A stretch of 26,079 nt of DNA. It comes from a virus (taxonomy: Duplodnaviria; Heunggongvirae; Uroviricota; Caudoviricetes). The position numbers and the translations under genes are program-made. The notes below the pieces were generated by a model. That model made no database searches and had not been told where the DNA came from. It worked only from the letters and a program-made list of their open reading frames with translations. The DNA is taken from positions 1 to 26,079 of IMG/VR virus record IMGVR_UViG_2698536454_000020. One strand, written 5' to 3'. Numbering within the stretch: the stretch's first letter is position 1; each line of letters opens with the position of its first letter. Shown here one piece after another: positions 3,238 to 26,079 of this stretch.

Positions 3238-3509
3238 GTATTCGTATTGAAATTGGCGAACGTTATGTCGTTACCAGTGACAGCTTTCAGTTTATTCTCC
3301 ACGAGAAAAAGAGAGCGGAAAGCGGTAAAAACGCCGGTCAGGAATGGCTGGCGGTGGTTGGTTATTACCCGAAATTAAGCCAGCTCGTTTCCGGCCTGAT
3401 GCATCACGATATTCTGACCGGAAGCGCAAAGTCTTTTGCTGATTTAAACGGGCAGGTTGAGCAACTCAGCAAGCGTTGTTCAGAGGCTTTTGGCTCATAT
3501 GGCCGTTAA
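3234..3509 (+). CDS. Hypothetical early protein (P2 orf83 position), 91 aa
   Basis: ORF track; ATGA overlap with the upstream gene; overlaps the A start by 11 nt. Confidence 0.5.
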   Translation: MSIRIEIGERYVVTSDSFQFILHEKKRAESGKNAGQEWLAVVGYYPKLSQLVSGLMHHDILTGSAKSFADLNGQVEQLSKRCSEAFGSYGR

Positions 3510-5778
3510 AGCCTCCGGGCGTTTTGTCCCTCCGTCAGCATTTGCCGCAGGCACCGGTAAGACGTTTACCGGTGCTTATGCATGGAACGCGCCACGCGAG
3601 GCCGTCGGGCGCGAAAGACCCCTTACACGTGACGAGATGCGTCAGGTGCAAGGTGTTTTATCCACGATTAACCGCCTGCCTTACTTTTTGCGTTCGCTGT
3701 TTACTTCACGCTATGACTACATCCGGCGCAATAAAAGCCCGGTGCACGGGTTTTATTTCCTCACATCCACTTTTCAGCGTCGTTTATGGCCGCGCATTGA
3801 GCGCGTGAATCAGCGCCATGAAATGAACACCGACGCGTCGTTACTGTTTCTGGCAGAGCGTGACCACTATGCGCGCCTGCCGGGAATGAATGACAAGGAG
3901 CTGAAAAAATTTGCCGCCCGTATCTCATCGCAGCTTTTCATGATGTATGAGGAACTCTGCGATGCCTGGGTGGATGCCCATGGCGAAAAAGAATCGCTGT
4001 TTACGGATGAGGCGCAGGCTCACCTGTATGGTCATGTTGCTGGCGCTGCACGTGCTTTCAATATTTCCCCGCTCTACTGGAAAAAATACCGTAAAGGACA
4101 GATGACCACGAGGCAGGCATATTCTGCCATTGCCCGCCTGTTTAACGATGAGTGGTGGACTCATCAGCTTAAAGGCCAGCGTATGCGCTGGCATGAGGCG
4201 TTACTGATTGCTGTCGGGGAGGTCAATAAAGACCGTTCTCCTTATGCCAGTAAACATGCCATTCGTGATGTGCGTGCACGCCGCCAGGCAAATCTGGAAT
4301 TTCTTAAATCGTGTGACCTTGAAAACAGGGAAACCGGCGAGCGCATCGACCTTATCAGTAAGGTGATGGGCAGTATTTCTAATCCTGAAATTCGCCGGAT
4401 GGAGCTGATGAACACCATCGCCGGAATTGAGCGTTACGCCGCCGCAGAGGGTGATGTGGGGATGTTTATCACGCTGACCGCGCCGTCAAAGTATCACCCG
4501 ACACGTCAGGTCGGAAAAGGCGAAAGTAAAACCGTCCAGCTAAATCACGGCTGGAACGATGAGGCATTTAATCCAAAGGATGCGCAGCGTTATCTCTGCC
4601 ATATCTGGAGCCTGATGCGCACGGCATTCAAGGATAATGATTTACAGGTCTACGGTTTGCGTGTCGTCGAGCCACACCACGACGGAACGCCGCACTGGCA
4701 TATGATGCTTTTTTGTCATCCACGCCAGCGTAACCAGATTATTGAAATCATGCGTCGCTATGCGCTCAAAGAGGATGGCGACGAAAGAGGAGCCGCGCGA
4801 AACCGTTTTCAGGCAAAACACCTTAACCGGGGCGGTGCTGCGGGATATATCGCGAAATACATCTCAAAAAACATCGACGGCTATGCACTGGATGGTCAGC
4901 TCGATAATGATACCGGTAGGCCGCTGAAAGACACAGCTGCGGCTGTTACCGCATGGGCGTCAACGTGGCGCATTCCGCAATTTAAAACGGTTGGTCTGCC
5001 GACAATGGGGGCTTACCGTGAACTACGCAAATTGCCTCGCGGCGTCAGCATTGCTGATGAGTTTGACGAGCGCGTCGAGGCTGCACGCGCCGCTGCAGAC
5101 AGTGGTGATTTTGCGTTGTATATCAGCGCGCAGGGCGGGGCAAATGTCCCGCGCGATTGTCAGACTGTCAGGGTCGCCCGTAGCCCGTCGGATGACGTTA
5201 ACGAGTACGAGGAAGAAGTCGAGAGAGTGGTCGGCATTTACGCGCCGCATCTCGGCGCGCGTCATATTCATATCACCAGAACGACGGACTGGCGCATTGT
5301 TCCGAAAGTGCCGGTCGTTGAGCCTTTGACTTTAAAAAGCGGCATCGCCGCGCCTCGGAGTCCTGTCAATAACTGTGGAAAGCTCACCGGTGGTGATACT
5401 TCGTTACCGGCTCCCACACCTTCTGAGCACGCCGCAGCAGTGCTTAATCTGGTTGATGACGGTGTTATTGAATGGAATGACCAGGAGGTCGTGAGGGCGC
5501 TCAGGGGCGCATTAAAACAAGGTCTGAGAAGACCAAACCGTCAGCAAAGAAACGGAAGCCCGTTAAAACAGCATGAAATGGCACCATCGGCCAGACTGAC
5601 CCGGTCAGAACGAATGCAAATTACCCGTATCCGCGTTGACCTTGCTCAGAACGGTATCAGGCCGCAGCGATGGGAGCTTGAGGCGCTGGCGCGTGGAGCA
5701 ATTGTAAATTACGACGGGAAAAAATTCACGTATCCAGTCGCTGATGAGTGGCGGGGATTCTCAGCAGTAATGGAGTGA
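3499..5778 (+). CDS. A: Rolling-circle replication initiator endonuclease (P2 gpA-like), about 759 aa from the ATG at 3499
   Basis: ORF track 3457..5778; start moved to 3499 (MAVKASGRFVPP...) to match the remembered gpA N-terminus; HUH-type motif PHWHMMLF and tyrosine motif GYIAKYISKN present. Confidence 0.88.
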   Translation: MAVKASGRFVPPSAFAAGTGKTFTGAYAWNAPREAVGRERPLTRDEMRQVQGVLSTINRLPYFLRSLFTSRYDYIRRNKSPVHGFYFLTSTFQRRLWPRIERVNQRHEMNTDASLLFLAERDHYARLPGMNDKELKKFAARISSQLFMMYEELCDAWVDAHGEKESLFTDEAQAHLYGHVAGAARAFNISPLYWKKYRKGQMTTRQAYSAIARLFNDEWWTHQLKGQRMRWHEALLIAVGEVNKDRSPYASKHAIRDVRARRQANLEFLKSCDLENRETGERIDLISKVMGSISNPEIRRMELMNTIAGIERYAAAEGDVGMFITLTAPSKYHPTRQVGKGESKTVQLNHGWNDEAFNPKDAQRYLCHIWSLMRTAFKDNDLQVYGLRVVEPHHDGTPHWHMMLFCHPRQRNQIIEIMRRYALKEDGDERGAARNRFQAKHLNRGGAAGYIAKYISKNIDGYALDGQLDNDTGRPLKDTAAAVTAWASTWRIPQFKTVGLPTMGAYRELRKLPRGVSIADEFDERVEAARAAADSGDFALYISAQGGANVPRDCQTVRVARSPSDDVNEYEEEVERVVGIYAPHLGARHIHITRTTDWRIVPKVPVVEPLTLKSGIAAPRSPVNNCGKLTGGDTSLPAPTPSEHAAAVLNLVDDGVIEWNDQEVVRALRGALKQGLRRPNRQQRNGSPLKQHEMAPSARLTRSERMQITRIRVDLAQNGIRPQRWELEALARGAIVNYDGKKFTYPVADEWRGFSAVME

Positions 5779-6043
5779 ACGTCGCCAGTTGCGAAAATTA
5801 TTTACAGGGGGCAGCGTTAAGCATCTAAAGATCTTGTTCTATGATTAGAATGTTTCCTCGTTGCACTCTCGTATAGTTATTTAATGGGAAGATGTACTCT
5901 ATATGTTGTGTTTTGGTGATAAATGAAGCCAAAGGAAGGAGATTTTGCTTGATTGATGGGCGCTCTTTGCTATACACCTTGTATTGAGAAGGAGAAGTAA
6001 TCAAGGATTAAGCTGGCTTTTGTCAAAAATCTGAAAAGCTTTT

Positions 6044-6073
6044 TTGACTGAATACGATAGCGAGTTGTACTAT
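6044..6073 (+). promoter_or_regulatory. Candidate sigma70 promoter for the island's first operon
   Basis: TTGACT (6044..6049), 18-bp spacer, TACTAT (6068..6073), about 35 bp upstream of the ATG at 6108. Confidence 0.35.
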
Positions 6074-6107
6074 TTGCGCCCTCAAAAGTAACCGGCGGCT
6101 GGGTAAA

Positions 6108-6482
6108 ATGGGGAAGCAAGGCAAAGGCAAAGGCAACAAAAATCAGGTTAAGGTTACGTGGGCTCAGGCGTGGCGGGATGTAATGATAAGAGCCATGTCT
6201 AATGGTCAGTTGATACCTATTACCATCAGTATTATTTTAATGATTGCTGCATGGAGGTTACCAAAAACTGACTTGTCCAATTTAGCCTTCTCTATTGTTG
6301 ATGGCTTTAAGGAGCATTCCTTGGTTGGTTGGGCTATCTCGGTAATAGTGGGTTTGGCTTGGTCTGCACATGCGCGAATCATGAGGCGCTGTTTTAGTTC
6401 CGAGGCACAGAGAATCGGTAACGAGAAAACAAAGTATCAACAAAGACAGACCACTCAAGCCTTGGGTACAAGTGATAAATAG
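6108..6482 (+). CDS. Small membrane protein, 124 aa, lysine-rich N-terminus and two predicted TM helices
   Basis: ORF track; hydrophobic stretches LIPITISIILMIAAW and LVGWAISVIVGLAWSA; low-GC island in the P2 tin/old hotspot slot. Confidence 0.55.
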   Translation: MGKQGKGKGNKNQVKVTWAQAWRDVMIRAMSNGQLIPITISIILMIAAWRLPKTDLSNLAFSIVDGFKEHSLVGWAISVIVGLAWSAHARIMRRCFSSEAQRIGNEKTKYQQRQTTQALGTSDK

Positions 6483-6502
6483 TTGTTTATTTAGGAGTTA
6501 TT

Positions 6503-7060
6503 ATGCTGACAGTGCTGTTTTATGTGCTGTTGGGTTTAGGCGCAGCACACTTCATTTACGAGCGAATCATTTTGCCGTCCATCCGACTTCATTATAGAAA
6601 CCAATTGTTTGCGCTTCGTGATGTCGCTAGGAGGAAAATCATTGATGGAGGTTCCGATACTTCCATGCAAGCGGCAACACTTGTGCATGACTCATTGAAT
6701 AACGCTATCAATAGATTGCATTTACTCACGTTGCCAAACAAATTTCGTGCTCAAAAGCGTATGGCAGAAAACCATGCAATAAGGCAGAAAATTCGGCGTG
6801 AGATAGATGTTTTCAAACGCTGTGATGATAGAGAAGTTGTTGATGTACTGTTTAAATCCGGTCGGATACTTGAAAATGTACTGTTATTCAATAGCTTAAT
6901 GTTATTGCTTTACATGTTTCCATTTGTCCTTGCTGTATGGTTCTGTGTTAGGGTCATAAAGACAGCAAGTAGTTTAGTACAGTGGGTCAAAGGAAGAGAT
7001 TTAGAGGAAGCTATAATGCTGCTTCCTGATACTCAGGTTGAAAAGGTTGTATACGCATAA
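6503..7060 (+). CDS. Membrane protein, 185 aa, N-terminal TM helix, central soluble region, C-terminal TM helix
   Basis: ORF track; AGGAG Shine-Dalgarno at 6493..6497; hydrophobic segments at residues about 2..18 and 128..150; 20 bp downstream of the preceding ORF. Confidence 0.6.
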   Translation: MLTVLFYVLLGLGAAHFIYERIILPSIRLHYRNQLFALRDVARRKIIDGGSDTSMQAATLVHDSLNNAINRLHLLTLPNKFRAQKRMAENHAIRQKIRREIDVFKRCDDREVVDVLFKSGRILENVLLFNSLMLLLYMFPFVLAVWFCVRVIKTASSLVQWVKGRDLEEAIMLLPDTQVEKVVYA

Positions 7061-7062
7061 AA

Positions 7063-7089
7063 ATCACCCCTTAGGGGGTGATTTTTTTA
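7063..7089 (+). terminator. Rho-independent terminator after the membrane-protein operon
   Basis: ATCACCCC-TTAG-GGGGTGAT perfect 8-bp stem followed by TTTTTTT, immediately after the stop at 7058..7060. Confidence 0.65.
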
Positions 7090-7255
7090 CATGACTTTTG
7101 ATTAGCTGACATTGTAAATCCGCATGTATCAGATGCATTGTTTTGCATGTGGAAATGGGTGTTTTCACTGCCAGCTATCGCTACATGTAGCAAAAACACG
7201 GGCTTAATAAGAAATCATTCTGCCATAAGGCATAACTTCCCCGCGTGCTCAGGTA

Positions 7256-7285
7256 TTGACGTCATAGATATGGATCTTTTTTAAT
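7256..7285 (+). promoter_or_regulatory. Candidate promoter for the TIR-like gene
   Basis: TTGACG (7256..7261), 17-18 bp spacer, TTTAAT-like -10; AAGG Shine-Dalgarno before the ATG at 7300. Confidence 0.3.
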
Positions 7286-7299
7286 CAAGGTATGGTATT

Positions 7300-8247
7300 A
7301 TGAAGATATTTATTAGTTGGTCAGGTCAGGACAGCCTGGAGATAGCAAAAGTATTACGGGATTGGATACCGAATGTTATTCAAGTAGCTGAGCCGTACGT
7401 ATCAGCGGAAGATATTGATAAAGGCACTCGCTGGGCGACTGATATATCAAAGGAACTTGATGACTCTTCTTATGGGATTATTTGCCTTACAAAAAATAAT
7501 ATTAATGCACCGTGGATAAATTTTGAGGCGGGTGCTTTAGGTAAAAAGGTTGATAAGAGCCGGGTTAGTCCTTTCTTGTTTAAAATTAAACCATCTGAGA
7601 TAACAGGCCCAATATTACAATTCCAGTATACTCGTTCGGATGATAAGAACGATATTTTGAAGTTGATGTTGTCAATAAATAATCAAGCAGGATTTTTGAC
7701 TGAAGAACGCTTAACTAAAGCTTTCGAGCAATGGTGGCCAAGTTTAGAGCGTGAGTTAGATAACATTCAAGATATTAACCCTGTAGATAAAGATTCCACT
7801 AAAAAAACAAAAGGTGATTCGACTTCTGAGATACAAAATCTTTCCAAAATTGTTGAAAGTTTGCTGGATATTAGCCGAACAAATCACCAATTATTGCGTG
7901 ATCCAGCATCATTATTGCCAGAAGAATATGTTAGCAAAATAATAAACAGGGAAGGGCGTAAAGAAACTGTTTTAAAAATTGTAGCTTCTGATTTATTATC
8001 CATGCATCATTCACTAATTCGTGTAAAAAGAAGATTTATTCGCCGTGGTATTGATGAAACATCTAGGAGCGAGTTAATTGAATCATTAAATAAAATGATA
8101 ATGGATTGTTCTAGAGTAATCGCTCACTTAGATAATTATTGTGGGGCTTCATCAAACAATATGTTCAATAGTGCGCTTAGATTGCGGACCAGAAATTTAA
8201 TTGACATGATGGATGAGGAGGATGCAGAACGGGATGAAATGGAATAA
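7300..8247 (+). CDS. TIR-like domain protein (N-terminal ~135 aa) fused to an unrecognised ~175-aa helical C-terminal domain; candidate anti-phage NADase or signal-generating protein
   Basis: N-terminus MKIFISWSGQDS and the block ICLTKNNINAPWINFEAG (W72, E76; GAG at 7525..7527) fit the bacterial TIR-like pattern (F-I-S-x-S/H start, [SA]-x-W-[CI]-x-x-E). Own promoter and terminator-bounded unit; low GC. Confidence 0.6.
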   Translation: MKIFISWSGQDSLEIAKVLRDWIPNVIQVAEPYVSAEDIDKGTRWATDISKELDDSSYGIICLTKNNINAPWINFEAGALGKKVDKSRVSPFLFKIKPSEITGPILQFQYTRSDDKNDILKLMLSINNQAGFLTEERLTKAFEQWWPSLERELDNIQDINPVDKDSTKKTKGDSTSEIQNLSKIVESLLDISRTNHQLLRDPASLLPEEYVSKIINREGRKETVLKIVASDLLSMHHSLIRVKRRFIRRGIDETSRSELIESLNKMIMDCSRVIAHLDNYCGASSNNMFNSALRLRTRNLIDMMDEEDAERDEME

Positions 8248-8297
8248 TCGATTTTGACTAATCATAAATAATTTTGCATATATAAACTTATAATGCC

Positions 8298-8320
8298 GCA
8301 GCCGCTATTTTTCAGCGGCT
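8298..8320. other. Hairpin (CAGCCGCT / AGCGGCTG stem) flanked by direct repeats CTTATAATG
   Basis: Read from sequence about 50 bp after the TIR-like gene stop; no clean T-run after the stem, so terminator function is uncertain. Confidence 0.3.
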
Positions 8321-8791
8321 GTATATCGCTTATAATGGGTATGTTATTTTTATTTTGATAAAATCATTAAAATTGTCGATGTTATATGAATGCACATGTA
8401 TTATTAATGTTAGAAGATTATGCCTGCTTACGGCTATTGTGCTGAATTCAACTATGAACGCATCAGTATTAAAATCGTTCCATGAAATGTTCTTCGTCTA
8501 CAGCAGATGATGGGCAACGAAAAAATGACGCTGAGTGAGTTGGTCGGGGAGAATTGTTAGAGGTATTTATGGAGTGGTTTAATAATATCGGTCAATCCTG
8601 AGTTGCAGCATCACATAGACGATAGGGAATCTCTCCAGTCGTTCTGGAATGGCAGCGTTGAACAACAAGCACAGCGAGGCGTTAGATGCCCATCAGATTG
8701 ACACAGAGGGTTTATGAATCGCTGGGATTTACTTAGTTTGAAAAATAATATATTTATATGTTTTTGTATTGTGTTTGTTAAGGAGTTTGGA

Positions 8792-8997
8792 TTGAAAAGA
8801 AAACTGATTTGTGTTATGGCTTTTTGGGGGCGTTGCTGGCTGGTTGTAATGAGAGTAATAAAAAAGAAGTTGAGGGTTGTATTGAAAGAGGTGTCCAATA
8901 TTTTATAGAGATTGGTTCTTACCCTAAATTAAGTGATGGGCGTGATGCTGTGAAAGTTGCTACTGAACGTTGTAATAGAACAATAACGGCTTTCTGA
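8792..8997 (+). pseudogene. Small lipoprotein gene (~70 aa) interrupted by a -1 frameshift in a T5G5 homopolymer run (8821..8830)
   Basis: AGGAG at 8781..8785 then TTG 8792; frame 2 gives MKRKLICVMAF..., frame 1 continues ...LGALLAGCNESNKK... to the stop at 8995..8997. One extra T would give a textbook lipoprotein signal peptide with LAGC lipobox. Confidence 0.4.
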
Positions 8998-8999
8998 TA

Positions 9000-9917
9000 A
9001 TGGATTATACGAGCTATATAATAGGGCAGCTTCAGGTTGAGGATATTATTGATGCAATTAAAGGCGTTAATAATACTAATGTCATAAAAGATTATGTGCT
9101 GCCTGTAGTATTACCAATTATATCTTCTGTGCTGAGTTACTTTATTGCAACTAGGTTGTTTTATCGGCAGGAGTACCTTAAAGCACAAAGAAGAAAGGTA
9201 AGCGTTGTAAATAAATGTATTTATGACTACTTTTCTGCAATGACAACGTTGTTGCAAATTAAAGGGAATTATTATGGTGGGGTAAGTATAAGTGAAAATC
9301 CTATCGAGAGGGCTTTAGCTTTTCCTGTTGTGGTTTTTTCTGGTGCTCCTCTATCATCAGATTTAAGTGAGTTGGCCTGTATATTGAGTCAAAAGGGAGT
9401 AGGGAATAATAGAGAGACAGCAAAGACTACTAACTGGGGGGATGCTTTTGCTGTTAGTGATATAGCAAGAAGGTTTAACAGCCTATTGGCTGCATTAAAT
9501 GTTAGGAATGATTTTGATGACACCTATAGAGGAATGATTATTGAATCAACAGGTTCACCTTTGCCTACGATGCGTTTTAAAAATGATGATATTGTTAATG
9601 CTATAGGTAGTAATAAGGCAGCTTATTACATTGATATTACTGAGCAAATAATGATTATGATAGATGTTTTGTTGCTTGATATTAATCTGTTGCTCAAAGA
9701 GTTGCCATTGTATGCTGAATCGCTGTTTGACAAAAGAGTAATGCAAGAAGATTCAGGGATTCTTAAATTCAATGATTTGCACGAACGTTTTCCTCTACTT
9801 ATGAAACCTGTAACGCCACCTTCGATTAAACTCATGTCTGATTATTTGGGGTACAGTGAAGATGAGATCTTACGACGCTATCCATACCCGTTCTTTAATA
9901 TGCATGATTGTGAATGA
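9000..9917 (+). CDS. Hypothetical membrane-anchored protein, 305 aa, one N-proximal TM helix, no recognisable domain
   Basis: ORF track; ATG overlaps the lipoprotein gene stop region (TGATAATG), implying co-transcription; hydrophobic segment VLPVVLPIISSVLSYFIAT; AT-rich codon usage. Confidence 0.6.
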   Translation: MDYTSYIIGQLQVEDIIDAIKGVNNTNVIKDYVLPVVLPIISSVLSYFIATRLFYRQEYLKAQRRKVSVVNKCIYDYFSAMTTLLQIKGNYYGGVSISENPIERALAFPVVVFSGAPLSSDLSELACILSQKGVGNNRETAKTTNWGDAFAVSDIARRFNSLLAALNVRNDFDDTYRGMIIESTGSPLPTMRFKNDDIVNAIGSNKAAYYIDITEQIMIMIDVLLLDINLLLKELPLYAESLFDKRVMQEDSGILKFNDLHERFPLLMKPVTPPSIKLMSDYLGYSEDEILRRYPYPFFNMHDCE

Positions 9918-10021
9918 ATGTGCATATGTCAGAAGCCGTTTTTATTGTCAGTTATCGTCAGTGCTGGCGCGCTCTTGGAGTGTTCATGCAACTGCATTAA
10001 AACCGCCCCACGAAGCGGGCG

Positions 10022-10040
10022 GGCGAGGCGGGGAAAGCAC
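10022..10040. other. Candidate cos site (P2-type 19-nt cohesive end GGCGAGGCGGGGAAAGCAC)
   Basis: Exact 19-mer present in a GC-rich gap between the island and portal gene Q, where cos lies in a P2 prophage; the cos sequence is recalled from memory, not searched. Confidence 0.5.
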
Positions 10041-10170
10041 TGCGCGCTGGCGGTGGTGATGATTGTCTGAGCGCGTCGTGATGGCGTTTAGATTGTGCGC
10101 CGGGGCGTTGGTGTGTCTGCGGGGTGTTTTGTACAGTGGCGAGCGTGTGAGGGCGTGATGACGGGGGTGT

Positions 10171-10197: not shown

Positions 10198-11232
10198 TCA
10201 GCCGTTGTCAGTGTCCAGTGAGTAGTTTTTAAAGCGGATGACCTCCTGACCGAGCCAGCCGTTTATTTCCCGAATCCTGTCCTGTAACGGGATAAGTTCA
10301 TTGCGGACAAAGACCTTTGCCACTTTCTCAATATCGCCCAGCGACCCGACGTTTTCCGGCTTGCCACCCATCAACTGAAAGGGGATGCGGTGCGCGTCCA
10401 GCAGGTCAGCGGCGCTGGCTTTTTTGATATTAAAAAAATCGTCCTTCGTGGCCACTTCACTGAGCGGGATAATTTTAATGCCGTCGGCTTTTCCCTGTGG
10501 GGCATAGAGAAACAGGTTTTTAAAGTTATTGCGGCCTTTCGACTTCACCATGTTTTCGCGGAGCATTTCGATATCGTTGCGATCCTGCACGGCATCAGTG
10601 ACGTACATGATGTATCCGGCATGTGCGCCGTTTTCGTAATACTTGCGGCGGAACAGCGTGGCCGACTCATTCAGCCAGGCCGAGTTAAGGGCGCTGAGAT
10701 ATTCCGGCAGGCCGTACAGCTCCTGATTAATATCCGGCTCCAGCAGGTGAAACACGGAGCCGGGCGTGAAAGGTGTCGGCTCGTTGAAGGACGGCACCCA
10801 CCAGTAAACATCCTCCTCCACCCCACGGCGGGTATATTTTGCCGGTGAGGTTTCCAGTCTGATGACCTTACCGGTGGTGCTGTATCGCTTTTCCAGAAAC
10901 GCATTACCGAACACCAGAAAATCCAGCACAAAGCGGCTGAAATCCTGTTGCGAAAGCCACGGGTGCGGGATAAACGTTGAGGCCAGAATATTACGTTTGA
11001 CGTAAATCGGGGAGCTGTGATGCACGGCAGCACGAAGGCTTTTTGCCAGCCCGGTAAAGCTGACTGGTGGCTCATACCATCTGCCGTTACTGATGCACTC
11101 GACGTAATCCAGAATGTCACGGCGGTCGAGTACCGGCACCGGCTCGCCAAAGGTGAATGCCTCCATTTTCGGGGCGCTGGCGGTCATTGTTTTTGCCGCT
11201 GGTCGCGGTGTTTTCCCTTTTTTCTTGCTCAT
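10198..11232 (-). CDS. Q: Portal protein (P2 gpQ-like), 344 aa
   Basis: 344-aa ORF, same length as P2 gpQ; adjacent to and co-oriented with the large terminase, divergent from O. Confidence 0.88.
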   Translation of the reverse strand: MSKKKGKTPRPAAKTMTASAPKMEAFTFGEPVPVLDRRDILDYVECISNGRWYEPPVSFTGLAKSLRAAVHHSSPIYVKRNILASTFIPHPWLSQQDFSRFVLDFLVFGNAFLEKRYSTTGKVIRLETSPAKYTRRGVEEDVYWWVPSFNEPTPFTPGSVFHLLEPDINQELYGLPEYLSALNSAWLNESATLFRRKYYENGAHAGYIMYVTDAVQDRNDIEMLRENMVKSKGRNNFKNLFLYAPQGKADGIKIIPLSEVATKDDFFNIKKASAADLLDAHRIPFQLMGGKPENVGSLGDIEKVAKVFVRNELIPLQDRIREINGWLGQEVIRFKNYSLDTDNG

Positions 11233-17519: not shown

Positions 17520-17945
17520 ATGAAGAAATTATCCCTTTCACTGATGCTGAACGTGTCGCTGGCGCTGATGCTGGCACTGTCCCTGATTTACCCGCAGAGC
17601 GTGGCCGTCAGTTTTGTCGCCACCTGGGCGATTCTGGCGACGGTTATCTGTGTGGTTGCCGGTGGTGTCGGCGTGTATGCCACGGAGTATGTGCTGGAAC
17701 GCTACGGGCGGGAGCTTCCGCCGGAATCGCTGGCCGTGAAGATTGTCACGTCGCTGTTTTTGCAGCCGGTGCCGTGGCGCAGACGGGCGGTGGCTCTGGT
17801 GGTGATGGTGGCGACGTTTATCTCGCTGGTCGCTGCCGGGTGGATTTTTACCGCGCTGATTTATCTCGTGGCGTCGGTGTTCTTCCGGCTGATACGTACG
17901 GCCTGCCGTCAGCGTTTTGAGGGGCGGGAACCATGTCAAAGCTGA
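17520..17945 (+). CDS. lysA: Lysis accessory membrane protein LysA-like, 141 aa
   Basis: 141-aa hydrophobic ORF following the endolysin; synteny with P2 lysA. Confidence 0.72.
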   Translation: MKKLSLSLMLNVSLALMLALSLIYPQSVAVSFVATWAILATVICVVAGGVGVYATEYVLERYGRELPPESLAVKIVTSLFLQPVPWRRRAVALVVMVATFISLVAAGWIFTALIYLVASVFFRLIRTACRQRFEGREPCQS

Positions 17946-18358
17946 TGATTGTGATGGTTGTGCTGTTATCGCTGGCGGTGGCGGGGCTGTTTCTGGTGAA
18001 GCATGAAAACGCCAGCCTGCGCGCCTCGCTGGACAGGGCGAACAACGTCGCCAGCGGGCAGCAGACGACCATCACCATGCTGCAAAATCAGCTTCATGTT
18101 GCCATCACCAGGGCAGACAAAAACGAGCTGGCGCAGGTGGCACTGCGTCAGGAACTGGAGAACGCCGCGAAGCGTGAAGCACAGCGCGAGAAAACCATCA
18201 CGAGGTTACTTAATGAAAACGAAGATTTTCGCCGCTGGTACGGTGCTGACCTGCCTGATGCTGTGCGCCGGTTGCACCAGCGCCCCGCCTGCACTGACGC
18301 CAGTGATTGTCCCCAACGCCTGCCCGAAAGTGAGCCTTTGCCCGATGCCGGGCAGTGA
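17933..18358 (+). CDS. lysB: LysB-like inner-membrane spanin (Rz-like), 141 aa
   Basis: N-terminal TM segment then coiled-coil-like region; synteny with P2 lysB. Confidence 0.72.
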   Translation: MSKLMIVMVVLLSLAVAGLFLVKHENASLRASLDRANNVASGQQTTITMLQNQLHVAITRADKNELAQVALRQELENAAKREAQREKTITRLLNENEDFRRWYGADLPDAVRRLHQRPACTDASDCPQRLPESEPLPDAGQ

Positions 18359-18503
18359 CCCGGAGACGAACGGCGATTTAAGTGCCGATATCCGGCAGCT
18401 TGAGAACGCGCTGGCACGCTGTGCCAGCCAGGTAAAAATGATTAAACACTGTCAGGACGAAAACGATGCTCAAACCCGACAGCCTGCGCAGGGCGCTGAC
18501 TGA
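18213..18503 (+). CDS. lysC: LysC-like outer-membrane lipoprotein spanin (Rz1-like), 96 aa, embedded out of frame in lysB
   Basis: ATG at 18213 inside ORF 18003..18503; MKTKIFAAGTVLTCLMLCAGC has a lipoprotein signal with lipobox; proline-rich mature part. Confidence 0.7.
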   Translation: MKTKIFAAGTVLTCLMLCAGCTSAPPALTPVIVPNACPKVSLCPMPGSDPETNGDLSADIRQLENALARCASQVKMIKHCQDENDAQTRQPAQGAD

Positions 18504-21337: not shown

Positions 21338-21941
21338 TTCGCGACTGCTGCCGACCGGCTCATCGCCGCTTGAAGTCGCCGCCGCAAAAGCCTGTGCGGA
21401 AATTGAAAAAACGCCGGTCAGTATTCGTGAGCTGTGGAACCCGGATACCTGTCCGGCAAATCTGCTGCCGTGGCTGGCGTGGTCATTTTCGGTTGACCGC
21501 TGGGATGATAAGTGGCCGGAAGCGACAAAACGCGCTGTTATCCGCGATGCGTATTTCATTCACTGCCATAAGGGCACTATAGGCGCAATCCGGCGTGTGG
21601 TGGAGCCGCTCGGCTATCTGATTGAGGTGAGGGAGTGGTGGCAGCTCAACGAGGAGCCGGGGACGTTCCGCATCGTTGTTGGCGTGCTTGAGCAGGGTAT
21701 TACCGAGGAAATGTATCAGGAGCTGGAGCGCCTCGTTGCTGATGCAAAACCGGCAAGCCGCCATCTGACGGGACTGGCTATCAGTTTAAGTACAACCGGC
21801 AACATTTTTGCCGGTGCAGGATGCTATCACGGCGACGCCCTGACGGTTTATCCCTACACCCCGGAGGCCATTATTGTCGGAGGGGATTATTTCCCGGCCT
21901 CGGCCATTCATTTAATTGATAACCTGAGAGTAAACGCATGA
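21330..21941 (+). CDS. I: Baseplate/tail protein I-like, 203 aa
   Basis: ORF overlapping the J stop and the H start; synteny. Its 3' 234 bp lie inside the long inverted repeat. Confidence 0.78.
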   Translation: MSDSRLLPTGSSPLEVAAAKACAEIEKTPVSIRELWNPDTCPANLLPWLAWSFSVDRWDDKWPEATKRAVIRDAYFIHCHKGTIGAIRRVVEPLGYLIEVREWWQLNEEPGTFRIVVGVLEQGITEEMYQELERLVADAKPASRHLTGLAISLSTTGNIFAGAGCYHGDALTVYPYTPEAIIVGGDYFPASAIHLIDNLRVNA

Positions 21942-22783
21942 CAGTGAAATACTACGCCATTCTGACTAATCAGGGCGCAGCACGGCTGGCTAACGCGACG
22001 ATGCTCGGCAGTAAGCTGAATCTGACGCAAATGGCAGTTGGTGATGCGAATGGTGTCTTGCCGACACCAGACCCGGCACAGACAAAACTGATTAACCAGA
22101 AACGCATCGCGCCGCTGAATCTTCTGAGTGTTGACCCGAACAACCAGAGCCAGATTATTGCGGAGCAAATCATCCCTGAGAACGAGGGCGGATTCTGGAT
22201 CCGTGAGATTGGGCTTTATGATGATGAAGGCGTACTCATTGCGGTGGCGAACTGCCCGGAAACGTACAAACCGCAGTTGCAGGAAGGCAGTGGTCGTACC
22301 CAGACTATCCGCATGATTCTGGTTGTCACGAATACCGAAGCTATTACGCTGAAAATCGACCCGTCGGTGGTACTGGCGACCCGTAAATATGTGGATGATG
22401 AAGTCCTGGAATTAAGGCTGTATGTGGATGACCAGATGAGCAAACACATTGCCGCACAGGACCCTCATACCCAGTATGCACAGAAACATAATCCGACATT
22501 TACCGGAGAACCAAAAGCGCCGACGCCTGCCGCAGGAAATAACACCACGCGGATTGCGACCACTGCGTTTGTACAGGCCGCTATTACCGCTCTGATTAAC
22601 GGTGCGCCTGACACGCTGGACACACTGAAAGAAATTGCCGCGGCCATTAACAATGACCCGAAATTCAGCACCACCATTAACAATGCGCTGGCAGGTAAAC
22701 AACCGCTGGACAATACGCTGACTCATTTGAGCGGAAAGGATGTTGCCGGTCTTCTCGCATACCTTGGTTTGGGAGAAGGTGCT
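21708..22783. repeat. Left arm of a 1076-bp near-perfect inverted repeat (3' end of I, constant part of H, site 1)
   Basis: Reverse-complement identity with 24492..25567 (coordinates sum to 47275); confirmed by identical ORFs on opposite strands (22412..22726 - and 24549..24863 +; 21908..22168 - and 25107..25367 +). Confidence 0.85.
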
Positions 22784-23221
22784 CCAGCTATTGGCGTTCC
22801 GTTCTTCTGGCCGTCCGCTGCAATGCCAAATACTGTAATCGACAGCTGGTCCAGTATGGTGTTTTTGAAGTTCAACGGCGCGAAATTCTCTGCCACTGAT
22901 TATCCTGTGCTGGCGAAAGTATTTCCTTCGCTGGTATTACCTGAAGCCCGCGGTGATTTCATTCGTATCTGGGATGACGGGCGAGGTACAGACGGTGGTC
23001 GCGAATTATTAAGCTGGCAGGCAGCTACAAACTTTTCTCAGTTTGCCGGGAATATAGGCGGAGGTGCGGGACACGCAATTAACTTTCATGATGGCATCGC
23101 CGGAAATCAGCCAGGATTTTCACGATTTAATTTAACCAGTAACTCTGTGGGTGATGGTGTGAATTTTGTTGCTGTCAGACCGCGAAATATTGCATTTAAC
23201 TTTCTGGTGAGGGCTAAATAA
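21938..23221 (+). CDS. H: Tail fibre protein H-like, 427 aa: constant N-terminal part (to about 22765) plus variable C-terminal cassette Hv1
   Basis: ORF track; N-terminal domain typical of P2/Mu-type tail fibres; a hix/gix-like crossover site lies in frame at 22752..22777. Confidence 0.82.
   Translation: MTVKYYAILTNQGAARLANATMLGSKLNLTQMAVGDANGVLPTPDPAQTKLINQKRIAPLNLLSVDPNNQSQIIAEQIIPENEGGFWIREIGLYDDEGVLIAVANCPETYKPQLQEGSGRTQTIRMILVVTNTEAITLKIDPSVVLATRKYVDDEVLELRLYVDDQMSKHIAAQDPHTQYAQKHNPTFTGEPKAPTPAAGNNTTRIATTAFVQAAITALINGAPDTLDTLKEIAAAINNDPKFSTTINNALAGKQPLDNTLTHLSGKDVAGLLAYLGLGEGAPAIGVPFFWPSAAMPNTVIDSWSSMVFLKFNGAKFSATDYPVLAKVFPSLVLPEARGDFIRIWDDGRGTDGGRELLSWQAATNFSQFAGNIGGGAGHAINFHDGIAGNQPGFSRFNLTSNSVGDGVNFVAVRPRNIAFNFLVRAK
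22752..22777 (+). other. hix/gix-like 26-bp recombination site 1 (TTCTCGCATACCTTGGTTTGGGAGAA) inside H
   Basis: Imperfect palindrome around a central TT; resembles remembered hixL TTCTTGAAAACCAAGGTTTTTGATAA and gixR; sits exactly at the constant/variable boundary of H. Confidence 0.6.
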
Positions 23222-23814
23222 TGAAACCTGTTTTTGATGAAAATGGGCTGGCTACAGTGCCGGGCGATATGCGTTGTTTTTATTATGATGCTGAAACATC
23301 TGAGTATACGGGCTGGTCTGATGAATATATTAATACTGGCGTAAGTATGCCCGCCTGTTCCACTGGTATTGACCCGGGCGAAAACATTCCGGGGAAAGTG
23401 GCAGTATTTACGGGTAAGGAATGGAGCTATGAAGAAGACCATCGCAATGAGACTGTTTACTCAACAGAAAATGGCGCAGCTGTTACAGTGGATTATATCG
23501 GTGCCATCAAAAACGGTTATGTCACGCTTTCACCGTTAACGCCATATGATAAATGGGATGGTGAGAAATGGGTGACAGATACTGAGGCACAGCATAACGC
23601 CGCAGTAGAAGCAGCAGAAGCACAGCGCCAGTCACTGATTGATGCAGCAATGGCTTCCATTAGTCTGATTCAGCTGAAATTACAGGCCGGACGGAAACTG
23701 ACTCAGGCAGAAACAACCCGACTTAACGCCGTGCTGGATTACATTGACGCGGTGACGGCAACAGATACCAGCACCGCGCCGGATGTCATCTGGCCTGAAC
23801 TGCCGGAGGCGTAG
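23221..23814 (+). CDS. G: Tail fibre assembly protein (Tfa/gpG/Mu-U family), 197 aa
   Basis: Immediately follows H; C-terminal ...[13 protein letters not shown] motif typical of tail-fibre assembly chaperones. Confidence 0.78.
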
Positions 23815-24214
23815 GCCATTCAATATCGGGTGCTGTTGAAGTATCAACACGCATCAGCAGCACACGGTATTTCTTCCATTCGGTGAGAGTTGAAGTTTCT
23901 TCATCAGTTGCGATATCAGCATCAACAGCATCCTGACGCCAGGATATTTCACTGTCAGCTTTTTCCCGTAATTGGGATTTTTTAACTTCAGTAATAGCTA
24001 TTAATTCCTTTTTGGTCGGCTGAGGAATATCTATCAGTGCTGGTTTTCCATTCAGTGTTCCAATCTGTTTTCCTGGTGGAATATCCATAAATAACTTTTT
24101 ATGTTCTTCCTCACTGACTATTACACCATCATCAGGCCACAGACCTGATGCCTCAAATTTTTCTTTCTCCGATATGGGGAAAAAGCCATTTGCTTTAGCG
24201 CTCCATACGTACAT
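23786..24214 (-). CDS. Second, convergent tail fibre assembly protein (alternative Tfa), 142 aa
   Basis: Minus-strand ORF; C-terminus ...[20 protein letters not shown] shares the Tfa motif; 3' ends of the two tfa genes overlap at 23786..23814. Confidence 0.72.
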
Positions 24215-24511
24215 ATCAATACCCCACCGCTATAATGTCCACATTAAATCCCCCGGGACCTGCCTGCCAGATGCTGGCCCCTGTTAATGATTTTGTTTGA
24301 TGAACAACCGCCACATTTGCTGGCGATTGTGTTTCAGTTGTTACAGTACCGATATCATTCCAGTTAATTGAGATGGAATAGTTCGTTGTTGTAAACGACC
24401 GTGGGAAAGTTATGTGTCTTACATTGGTGCCAACAGGAAATCCAAGATAAACACGCTGAATTATCATTCCTCCAGGTAACATAACCCAGTTAGCACCTTC
24501 TCCAAAACCAA
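24122..24511. repeat. First copy of a 390-bp direct repeat (5' end of the minus-strand tfa gene, Hv2 cassette, half of the crossover site)
   Basis: Identical to 25569..25958 (offset 1447 bp); the copies diverge at the centre of the crossover sites. Confidence 0.85.
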
Positions 24512-25337
24512 GGTATGCGAGAAGACCGGCAACATCCTTTCCGCTCAAATGAGTCAGCGTATTGTCCAGCGGTTGTTTACCTGCCAGCGCATTGTTAATG
24601 GTGGTGCTGAATTTCGGGTCATTGTTAATGGCCGCGGCAATTTCTTTCAGTGTGTCCAGCGTGTCAGGCGCACCGTTAATCAGAGCGGTAATAGCGGCCT
24701 GTACAAACGCAGTGGTCGCAATCCGCGTGGTGTTATTTCCTGCGGCAGGCGTCGGCGCTTTTGGTTCTCCGGTAAATGTCGGATTATGTTTCTGTGCATA
24801 CTGGGTATGAGGGTCCTGTGCGGCAATGTGTTTGCTCATCTGGTCATCCACATACAGCCTTAATTCCAGGACTTCATCATCCACATATTTACGGGTCGCC
24901 AGTACCACCGACGGGTCGATTTTCAGCGTAATAGCTTCGGTATTCGTGACAACCAGAATCATGCGGATAGTCTGGGTACGACCACTGCCTTCCTGCAACT
25001 GCGGTTTGTACGTTTCCGGGCAGTTCGCCACCGCAATGAGTACGCCTTCATCATCATAAAGCCCAATCTCACGGATCCAGAATCCGCCCTCGTTCTCAGG
25101 GATGATTTGCTCCGCAATAATCTGGCTCTGGTTGTTCGGGTCAACACTCAGAAGATTCAGCGGCGCGATGCGTTTCTGGTTAATCAGTTTTGTCTGTGCC
25201 GGGTCTGGTGTCGGCAAGACACCATTCGCATCACCAACTGCCATTTGCGTCAGATTCAGCTTACTGCCGAGCATCGTCGCGTTAGCCAGCCGTGCTGCGC
25301 CCTGATTAGTCAGAATGGCGTAGTATTTCACTGTCAT
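24216..25337 (-). CDS. Alternative tail fibre gene (inverted copy of the H constant part fused to variable cassette Hv2), 373 aa
   Basis: Minus-strand ORF; the first 27x residues are identical to H, diverging right after the crossover site; the nucleotide sequence is the reverse complement of 21938..22783. Confidence 0.65.
24498..24523 (+). other. hix/gix-like recombination site 2 (TTCTCCAAAACCAAGGTATGCGAGAA), inverted relative to site 1
   Basis: Reverse complement of site 1 with one mismatch; lies at the Hv2/constant boundary. Confidence 0.6.
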
Positions 25338-25567
25338 GCGTTTACTCTCAGGTTATCAATTAAATGAATGGCCGAGGCCGGGAAATAATCCCCTCCGACA
25401 ATAATGGCCTCCGGGGTGTAGGGATAAACCGTCAGGGCGTCGCCGTGATAGCATCCTGCACCGGCAAAAATGTTGCCGGTTGTACTTAAACTGATAGCCA
25501 GTCCCGTCAGATGGCGGCTTGCCGGTTTTGCATCAGCAACGAGGCGCTCCAGCTCCTGATACATTTC
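25338..25567 (-). pseudogene. Inverted, 5'-truncated duplicate of the 3' end of gene I (last ~76 codons)
   Basis: C-terminus of minus ORF 25334..25666 is identical to the I C-terminus (MYQELERLVADAK...LRVNA); no corresponding 5' part. Confidence 0.6.
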
Positions 25568-25568
25568 A

Positions 25569-25958
25569 TACACCATCATCAGGCCACAGACCTGATGCCT
25601 CAAATTTTTCTTTCTCCGATATGGGGAAAAAGCCATTTGCTTTAGCGCTCCATACGTACATATCAATACCCCACCGCTATAATGTCCACATTAAATCCCC
25701 CGGGACCTGCCTGCCAGATGCTGGCCCCTGTTAATGATTTTGTTTGATGAACAACCGCCACATTTGCTGGCGATTGTGTTTCAGTTGTTACAGTACCGAT
25801 ATCATTCCAGTTAATTGAGATGGAATAGTTCGTTGTTGTAAACGACCGTGGGAAAGTTATGTGTCTTACATTGGTGCCAACAGGAAATCCAAGATAAACA
25901 CGCTGAATTATCATTCCTCCAGGTAACATAACCCAGTTAGCACCTTCTCCAAAACCAA
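25569..25958. repeat. Second copy of the 390-bp direct repeat
   Basis: See first copy; begins abruptly after the inverted I fragment (junction at 25568). Confidence 0.85.
25663..25944 (-). other. Duplicate Hv2 variable tail-fibre cassette (promoterless, no constant N-terminal part attached)
   Basis: C-terminal 94 aa of minus ORF 25663..26064 are identical to the Hv2 C-terminus; upstream of it (beyond site 3) the reading frame is unrelated to H. Confidence 0.6.
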
Positions 25959-25970
25959 CGTTTATGAAAA
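25945..25970 (+). other. hix/gix-like recombination site 3 (TTCTCCAAAACCAACGTTTATGAAAA), outer boundary of the invertible region
   Basis: Left half identical to site 2, right half divergent but still matching the hix consensus (..AAACC NN GGTTT../..CGTTTATGAAAA); the flanking sequence to the right is not tail-fibre sequence, as for gixR next to gin in Mu. Confidence 0.55.
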
Positions 25971-26079
25971 TGCAGAGATAAGTAAGCGTCGTCTCAGCAC
26001 CGTCTGGCAGATCCTGAAATTCCTGAGAGAATAGTGGACACCAAATATGGTGGACGCTATCCATGAAATCATTAACCGC

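Follow-up and report, generated by a model that had tools for sequence, protein, structure and literature searches.

Cor of phages phi80, N15 and HK022 and Llp of phage T5 are small phage-encoded lipoproteins that block the FhuA receptor. Phage T4 encodes Imm and Sp, an envelope-located superinfection-exclusion pair that is dispensable for growth. In P2-like prophages, cargo tested from the accessory hotspot has often proved to be anti-phage (PMC9122126, PMC9519451). Vassallo et al. 2022 report ‘a lipoprotein’ as a defence system (PMC9519451), and Rousset et al. 2022 showed defence by a 2TM-1TM-TIR system from phage AC1 by means of the clone pFD240 (PMC9122126). Both genes of the pair described below are listed in a table of the latter study as ‘hypothetical’ hotspot content (PMC9122126).

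The window analysed here, a stretch of 26,079 nucleotides taken at its full length, is a P2-like (Peduovirus) prophage. It comprises an integrase, replication gene A (3457-5778), an accessory hotspot, cos (~10022-10040) and the portal gene (10198-11232, minus strand), followed by terminase, head, lysis and tail genes. Within the hotspot lies a small lipoprotein gene that is interrupted by a single-base deletion, with a gene for a membrane protein directly behind it. We are confident that the locus carries a real, inherited allele in which a small gene for an exported lipoprotein has lost its function, and that this gene is the first of two in an accessory cassette of the A–Q hotspot.

A lipoprotein gene split in a T/G tract

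The lipoprotein gene (8792-8997, plus strand; 68 codons if intact) starts with a TTG at 8792, and a Shine-Dalgarno sequence, AGGAG (8781-8785), can be read directly 6 nt 5' of it. The earlier note had called both elements correctly, and the 68-aa form is annotated from the equivalent start in NZ_CP146667, where the codon is ATG. From TTG 8792, frame 2 encodes MKRKLICVMAF; at the T5G5 tract TTTTTGGGGG (8821-8830), the site of the frameshift, it continues with WGRCWLVVMRV… and ends at TAG 8906-8908. This truncated reading frame of 38 codons (8792-8908) is the one that is actually open from the start codon. Frame 1 carries …LGALLAGCNESNKK… through to TGA 8995-8997. With one base added to the tract, the two frames join into a protein of 68 aa that begins with MKRK, followed by 12 hydrophobic residues and the lipobox L-A-G-C, and both the frames and the intact orthologues (P0001/P0013, P0002, P0004 and P0029) define the gene in this form.

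The intact lipoprotein, as encoded by the T5G6 tract, reads MKRK-LICVMAFWGAL-LAGC, with the lipobox cysteine at position 19 and a mature domain of ~49 aa. It has a basic n-region, an h-region and a lipobox of the form [LVI][ASTVI][GAS]C ~15-25 residues from the start, whereas the window allele has the lipobox in a different frame from the start codon. At position +2 this protein has Asn, whereas P0004/P0029 have Asp, which gives no clear prediction of the membrane to which the lipoprotein would be sorted.

Gene callers treat the locus in several ways. On intact copies, PGAP annotates 94 aa from an upstream ATG (window 8714), and PGAP-style callers extend the truncated frame-2 ORF upstream to the same ATG, which gives 64 aa (P0006). 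In E. coli M21816, PGAP leaves a 750-nt stretch empty, with no gene at the position of the lipoprotein. We prefer the 68-aa form because it alone fits an N-terminal signal peptide and the 68-aa Citrobacter orthologue. The upstream ATG of the 94-aa annotation is probably wrong, the real gene having 68 codons.

Comparison with orthologues supports the split as real rather than a chance arrangement of frames. Among 5,426 complete E. coli genomes, 15 contain the 301-nt stretch 8700-9000. In 14 of these 15 the stretch is longer by one base and the gene reads through in one frame, in agreement with the earlier note's reading of a lipoprotein gene split by a single-base frameshift in a T/G homopolymer. 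The closest relatives have T5G6 (…AFWGALLAGC). A 94%-identical lineage has T7G4 (…AFFGALLVGC) and an ATG where the window has TTG, and a third, the P0002 lineage, has T6GGGAG (…AFLGALLVGC), the protein that the earlier note had predicted. The tract thus measures 11 nt in every intact T/G-tract lineage and 10 nt in the window. As the nearest intact relatives have T5G6 and the window T5G5, the base that was lost is a G and not a T. The earlier note had proposed repair by an additional T to a ~70-aa LAGC lipoprotein; the signal peptide and the LAGC lipobox stand, in a protein of 68 aa, but the nearest relatives carry an extra G. The comparison of T6 with T5 among orthologues that it had suggested likewise shows that the break is not shared by all of them, and that the close intact alleles differ by a G, T6 being seen only as T6GGGAG.

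In the lineage of the contigs L004 and L098, AAGGTG followed by an ATG start occupies the equivalent Shine-Dalgarno site. Few substitutions separate the window from the L004/L098 lineages, too few for a dN/dS reading. The G-run is missing from the divergent orthologues L030, L032 and L041. All divergent orthologues, together with 119 aligned family members, are in frame, and on this alignment evidence the intact state is ancestral.

T5G5 as an inherited allele

The T5G5 tract recurs outside the window. It is found in phage P2_AC1 (NC_070903), which Rousset et al. 2022 obtained as plaques on E. coli C and whose genome is a SPAdes assembly (PMC9122126), in the IMG/VR contig L086, and in 10 of 10 fetched contigs of isolates and metagenomes (Logan, ENA metagenomes and NCBI). 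It is also found in E. coli M21816, which is identical to the window over the 301-nt query; as the identity over 8.3 kb is 98.9%, M21816 is a separate carrier. P0006, the 64-aa product, can be encoded by T5G5 alone and is recorded on 124 contigs. The contig counts, 124 versus 297, are neither comparable nor allele frequencies, as the broken ORF is not indexed in annotated assemblies. The contigs found under the T5G5-specific product (L010-L019) are all shorter than 11 kb and those with the intact product (L020-L029) reach megabases, a size gap that likely reflects annotation bias or assembly breaks at the conserved P2 flanks.

We compared haplotypes over window positions 6130-9920 in 12 T5G5 and 11 T5G6 copies. 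Every T5G5 copy (12/12) carries 6269T/9417A and every close T5G6 copy (10/10) carries 6269A/9417C, while the more divergent L003 is the sole copy that pairs G6 with 6269T/9417A. The T5G5 copies form two sub-haplotypes, one consisting of the window and L010, the other of AC1, M21816 and L011-L019. The sole conflict with a single origin of T5G5 is a T5/T6 length polymorphism at 8346-8350, in the intergenic region between the TIR gene and the lipoprotein gene. One and two origins are equally parsimonious on these sequences, and the change from G6 to G5 may have occurred twice. The frameshift is the only sign of decay in the lipoprotein gene, and all 12 T5G5 copies have an unbroken partner gene, which points either to a recent loss or to some remaining function.

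Sequencing error, recent pseudogenisation and slipped-strand phase variation were the three explanations that the earlier note had offered for the break. The shared T5G5 tract and its linkage to flanking SNPs support the second of these, an inherited null allele. The frameshift itself is an ordinary pseudogenising event, and the allele is a fairly common one.

Reversible phase variation, in which slipped-strand mispairing of the G-run would toggle the lipoprotein, and the partner by polarity, within a lineage, is unlikely. The break does sit in adjoining homopolymers, both tract lengths are common in nature, and the lack of secondary decay together with the intact partner in all T5G5 copies would suit a switch. 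The four-gamete conflict with the T-run at 8346 also permits two independent G6 to G5 events, although that site is itself a mutable homopolymer. Contingency tracts are typically mononucleotide runs of 7-8 or more. The runs here, at 5-6 nt, are far shorter, and none of the 22 close copies, admittedly a small sample, mixes a tract length with the SNPs of the other haplotype. Moreover, the G-run is absent from the divergent orthologues, interrupted (GGGAG) or shortened (G4) in sister lineages, and thus not conserved as a switch would be. Across the orthologues and the 22 close copies we found neither a long conserved tract nor ON and OFF lengths within identical haplotypes. An inherited null allele is therefore favoured over a contingency switch, given the lack of interconversion within haplotypes, the short runs and the missing G-run in divergent orthologues.

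It is highly improbable that the full lipoprotein is still produced from T5G5 by recoding, either through a -1 slip of tRNA-Phe on U-UUU (…AFLGALLAGC) or through transcriptional slippage. At the P site, a -1 shift from UUU 8822-8824 to UUU 8821-8823 would preserve full pairing, and its product would be exactly the protein natural to the P0002 lineage. However, the in-frame heptamer is U UUU UGG and not X XXY YYZ, and the next 80 nt show less structure than shuffled controls do (z = +1.84). A search for the marks of programmed -1 frameshifting thus found no slippery heptamer at the tract, no stimulatory structure downstream and, in the orthologues, a single frame throughout, which makes the shift derived rather than conserved. 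Runs as short as T5 and G5 do not support efficient RNA polymerase slippage, which speaks against the transcriptional variant.

A similarly slim chance attaches to a functional gene with a shortened signal peptide, in which the 62-aa frame-1 ORF from TTG 8809 (MCYGFLGALLAGC…), or a shorter ORF that starts at TTG 8833, would be translated and exported. Such an ORF exists and keeps the lipobox and the whole mature domain, and gene callers sometimes give a 54-aa version of the lipoprotein (P0003). Yet no Shine-Dalgarno-like sequence precedes 8809 or 8833, and the signal peptide would lack a positively charged n-region and have ~9 hydrophobic residues before the lipobox, whereas all intact orthologues begin with an n-region containing K/R or N/K. 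Without a Shine-Dalgarno sequence and a basic n-region, rescue of export from either start is unlikely.

A sequencing or assembly error, by which the true window sequence would be T5G6 and the gene intact, is extremely improbable: although undercalled homopolymers are the commonest error type in long-read assemblies and the longer tract prevails among the complete genomes, the same T5G5 recurs in independent data (the SPAdes assembly of P2_AC1, M21816 and the IMG/VR, Logan, ENA and NCBI contigs), the window has both SNPs linked to T5G5, and tract 8821-8830 is the only coding single-base homopolymer indel private to the window over ~21 kb aligned with three related prophages.

A conserved lipoprotein family

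The lipoprotein matches PHROG 32041 (E = 9.5e-38), its sole family match. A search with the single sequence retrieved only 5 clusters, whereas a profile search retrieved 194 small proteins of 65-100 aa from Alpha-, Beta- and Gammaproteobacteria, Gemmatimonadota and Bdellovibrio. A lipobox is present in at least 97 of the 119 aligned family members, and others have ordinary signal peptides. Exactly two further cysteines occur in 92 of the 97 lipobox members, and most aligned sequences share the C-terminal …ERCNRTTTAF. The AlphaFold model of the mature domain shows a helix-loop-helix with pLDDT >90 and the two conserved cysteines on opposite helices, which suggests a disulfide-capable helical hairpin. 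Neither the lipoprotein nor its 119 relatives belong to a Pfam, NCBIfam or PADLOC family; the few hits to LptM are explained by the signal peptide and lipobox alone. The fold search returned no match in PDB or BFVD at E <0.5, and the literature searched contains no mention of the accessions of the lipoprotein or partner proteins.

Outside the Enterobacteriaceae, the neighbours of family members are heterogeneous and often housekeeping genes, and the partner is never adjacent. No neighbour gene recurs across 47 non-enterobacterial family loci. Three neighbours were considered as partners and set aside as single cases whose pattern was not reproduced: an OLD-family nuclease (L038), a DUF4236 protein (L036) and a T6SS effector/immunity locus (L035). 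In Telluria sp. B2 (L038 3110-5252) and Nitrosospira sp. Nsp11 (L036 3785-5222), distant lipoproteins lie 16-35 nt downstream of the neighbouring gene, which encodes an OLD-family ATPase/TOPRIM nuclease in Telluria and, on a Trb-type conjugative element, a DUF4236 protein in Nitrosospira. On unrelated phage contigs, family members adjoin the tape-measure gene or have an Rz-like spanin gene close by, both typical positions for accessory genes.

The family is strongly conserved and unannotated across several bacterial phyla, and it deserves a family definition. What is new here, a widely conserved uncharacterised lipoprotein family and its P2-specific pairing with the phrog_21267 membrane protein, is of modest novelty.

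The partner gene and the two-gene cassette

The partner gene (9000-9917, plus strand) starts 2 nt past the lipoprotein stop (TGATAATG) and encodes a 305-aa single-pass membrane protein of PHROG 21267. Its one hydrophobic helix spans residues ~33-54, with a net charge of -3 before and +5 after it, and the protein is predicted to be N-out/C-in with an all-helical cytoplasmic domain of ~250 aa. The structure model, built from a 3-sequence alignment, was poor (pLDDT 51.5) and was left out of the fold search. We found 171 full-length relatives at 20-29% identity, and all 40 of the 40 sampled fall into PHROG 21267. For the partner and these 40 relatives there was no link to Pfam, NCBIfam, PADLOC or PDB, the PDB profile search yielding transmembrane-helix noise only. 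The N-terminus of ~30 residues, predicted to be periplasmic, is highly conserved (IIDAIKG), and we infer that it is a candidate contact for the lipoprotein.

Lipoprotein and partner occur together in P2-like prophages of E. coli, E. albertii and Citrobacter at 54-99% identity, in constant order and always in the A–Q hotspot. The partner adjoins the lipoprotein in every enterobacterial P2-like orthologue sampled; in divergent orthologues the gap between the two genes is ~34 nt. The company of the pair varies between the TIR system, a 333-aa gene and a MauJ-like gene, and in some prophages the pair is the sole cargo besides a DUF3850/ASCH gene. As the two genes recur with varied cargo or alone, and in the same order, they behave as an autonomous two-gene cassette. 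In one intact-allele prophage, that of E. coli GCEC19 (CP137765; L023 6609-8911), an IS21-family element (rve and IstB) is placed between the partner and portal genes.

The pair does not fit a spanin pair of the Rz/Rz1 type, which belongs to the lysis cassette and joins an N-in/C-out i-spanin with a periplasmic coiled coil to a small proline-rich outer-membrane lipoprotein. It lies outside the lysis cassette, the large domain of the partner is predicted to be cytoplasmic, and the mature lipoprotein lacks the richness in proline. LysB/LysC are annotated separately in the related prophage D7, at about window positions 17933-18503.

The neighbouring TIR system

Upstream of the pair and on the same strand lies a 2TM-1TM-TIR defence system (6102-6482, 6503-7060 and 7300-8247), whose genes match the PADLOC models 2TM-TIR, 1TM-TIR and TIR-TM with E = 7e-58 to 2e-118. 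Near the 5' end of the 2TM gene, at ~6110-6135, an (AAGGCA)n hexanucleotide tandem repeat encodes (GK)n. Its copy number varies between near-identical prophages and yields 2TM products of 124, 126, 128 or 130 aa.

Between the TIR genes and the pair, a hairpin (~8296-8322) overlaps a promoter-like TTTTCA-16-TATAAT (8309-8336, plus strand) identified by its consensus matches. The segment 8296-8336 is the probable boundary, as read from these motifs, between the TIR operon and the lipoprotein/partner unit. The clone pFD240 covers the equivalent of window 5843-8633, stopping 159 nt short of the lipoprotein start. As it defends without the downstream pair, the TIR system is independent of the pair. 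TIR system and pair occur together in the window, AC1, M21816 and ~25 sampled contigs, and the pair occurs without the TIR genes in L004, L030, L032 and L098-L102. We considered the pair as a fourth and fifth component of Rst_2TM_1TM_TIR and rejected this, as the active clone excludes the pair and the pair occurs without TIR genes.

Other features of the prophage

The window lacks 13 bp (TTATTTTTTCAGC) at 10064/10065 that are present in the related prophages L005-L007, to the right of the P2-type cos GGCGAGGCGGGGAAAGCAC. At the far end of the window, an inverted tail-fibre set (23786-26064, minus strand) faces the H/G tail-fibre genes (21938-23814, plus strand). The set consists of Caudo_TAP (23786-24214), Phage_tail_fib + Gp53-like_C (24216-25337) and Gp53-like_C (25663-26064), and the arrangement resembles the invertible host-range segments known as G in Mu and C in P1.

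In four ‘complete’ E. coli chromosomes (NZ_CP133923, NZ_CP190018, NZ_CM169482 and NZ_AP045736), base 1 is that of the replication endonuclease gene of this prophage, with a match at 5202-5509 in each. A chromosome-rotation tool probably took the phage gene A for the replication-start gene in these four records.

Discussion

In our reading a G6 run lost one G, which shifts the frame after codon 11. Translation from TTG 8792 then ends at 8906-8908 without the lipobox and the mature domain, and the T5G5 allele would make little or no lipoprotein. Judged from the spacing of the two genes, the frameshift probably also lowers translation of the partner by breaking translational coupling. Reduced partner expression is probable because stop and start are 2 nt apart, the partner has no recognisable Shine-Dalgarno sequence and ribosomes in frame 2 stop 92 nt upstream. 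The intact lipoprotein, for its part, would be lipidated, with its two-helix domain facing the periplasm, and could serve lysogenic conversion at the envelope, perhaps together with the partner, whose conserved N-terminal segment is predicted to lie in the periplasm. Because AC1 is viable with the broken allele and the TIR clone is active, the lipoprotein is dispensable for phage growth, lysogeny and TIR-mediated defence.

The likeliest role of such a factor would be to block the entry of other phages or to defend against them, a tentative proposal that is the weakest step of our reading and that we regard as possible but not probable. The analogy with Cor and Llp drawn in the earlier note is a guess at function. 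The position of the lipoprotein gene as a phage accessory gene is compatible with a role in superinfection exclusion, which is plausible; for the lipoprotein, none of the searches (Pfam, NCBIfam, PADLOC, annotated PHROGs and fold) ties it to an exclusion or defence factor. The broader idea, that the two genes form a new envelope-associated module of the P2 defence hotspot, directed against phages or serving superinfection exclusion and drawn from families of ~200 ERCNRTTTAF lipoproteins and ~170 phrog_21267 proteins, is more speculative still and rather doubtful. If it holds, matched natural ON (T5G6) and OFF (T5G5) alleles already exist, the OFF allele in the experimentally used AC1. The allele in AC1 being broken, the lysogen phenotype published for this phage is silent on the intact pair. 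The intact and null natural alleles are one base apart, which makes a clean comparison easy.

Of the systems compared, Rst_2TM_1TM_TIR of phage AC1 is the immediate upstream neighbour of the pair on the same strand. It differs in that its three genes alone reproduce the defence of the lysogen, and the hairpin and promoter-like site lie in between. With T4 Imm/Sp, the pair may share the combination of a membrane protein and a small, anchored, periplasm-facing protein, a likeness in architecture only. When set beside the lipoprotein system of Vassallo et al. 2022, the lipoprotein described here matches no PADLOC model.

The likeness to Cor and Llp lies in a phage-encoded lipoprotein of ~50 aa when mature, with a canonical lipobox, that is encoded by a prophage accessory gene. 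Family members elsewhere are located inside phage tail or lysis modules, as cor is. However, there is no sequence similarity (Pfam, NCBIfam, annotated PHROG) or fold similarity (PDB, BFVD) to Cor or Llp. Unlike them, the family is widespread in non-phage chromosomal settings across Proteobacteria, and the P2-like lipoprotein is paired with a membrane protein. With the old/tin cargo of P2, the pair shares its place, flanked by the replication endonuclease gene A on one side and cos/portal gene Q on the other, and its exchangeability between near-identical prophages, whereas it has no PADLOC model and was left out of the sole construct tested from the locus. Thus, while it fails the homology tests for these families, the pair resembles both Cor/Llp and the old/tin cargo in architecture and genomic position.
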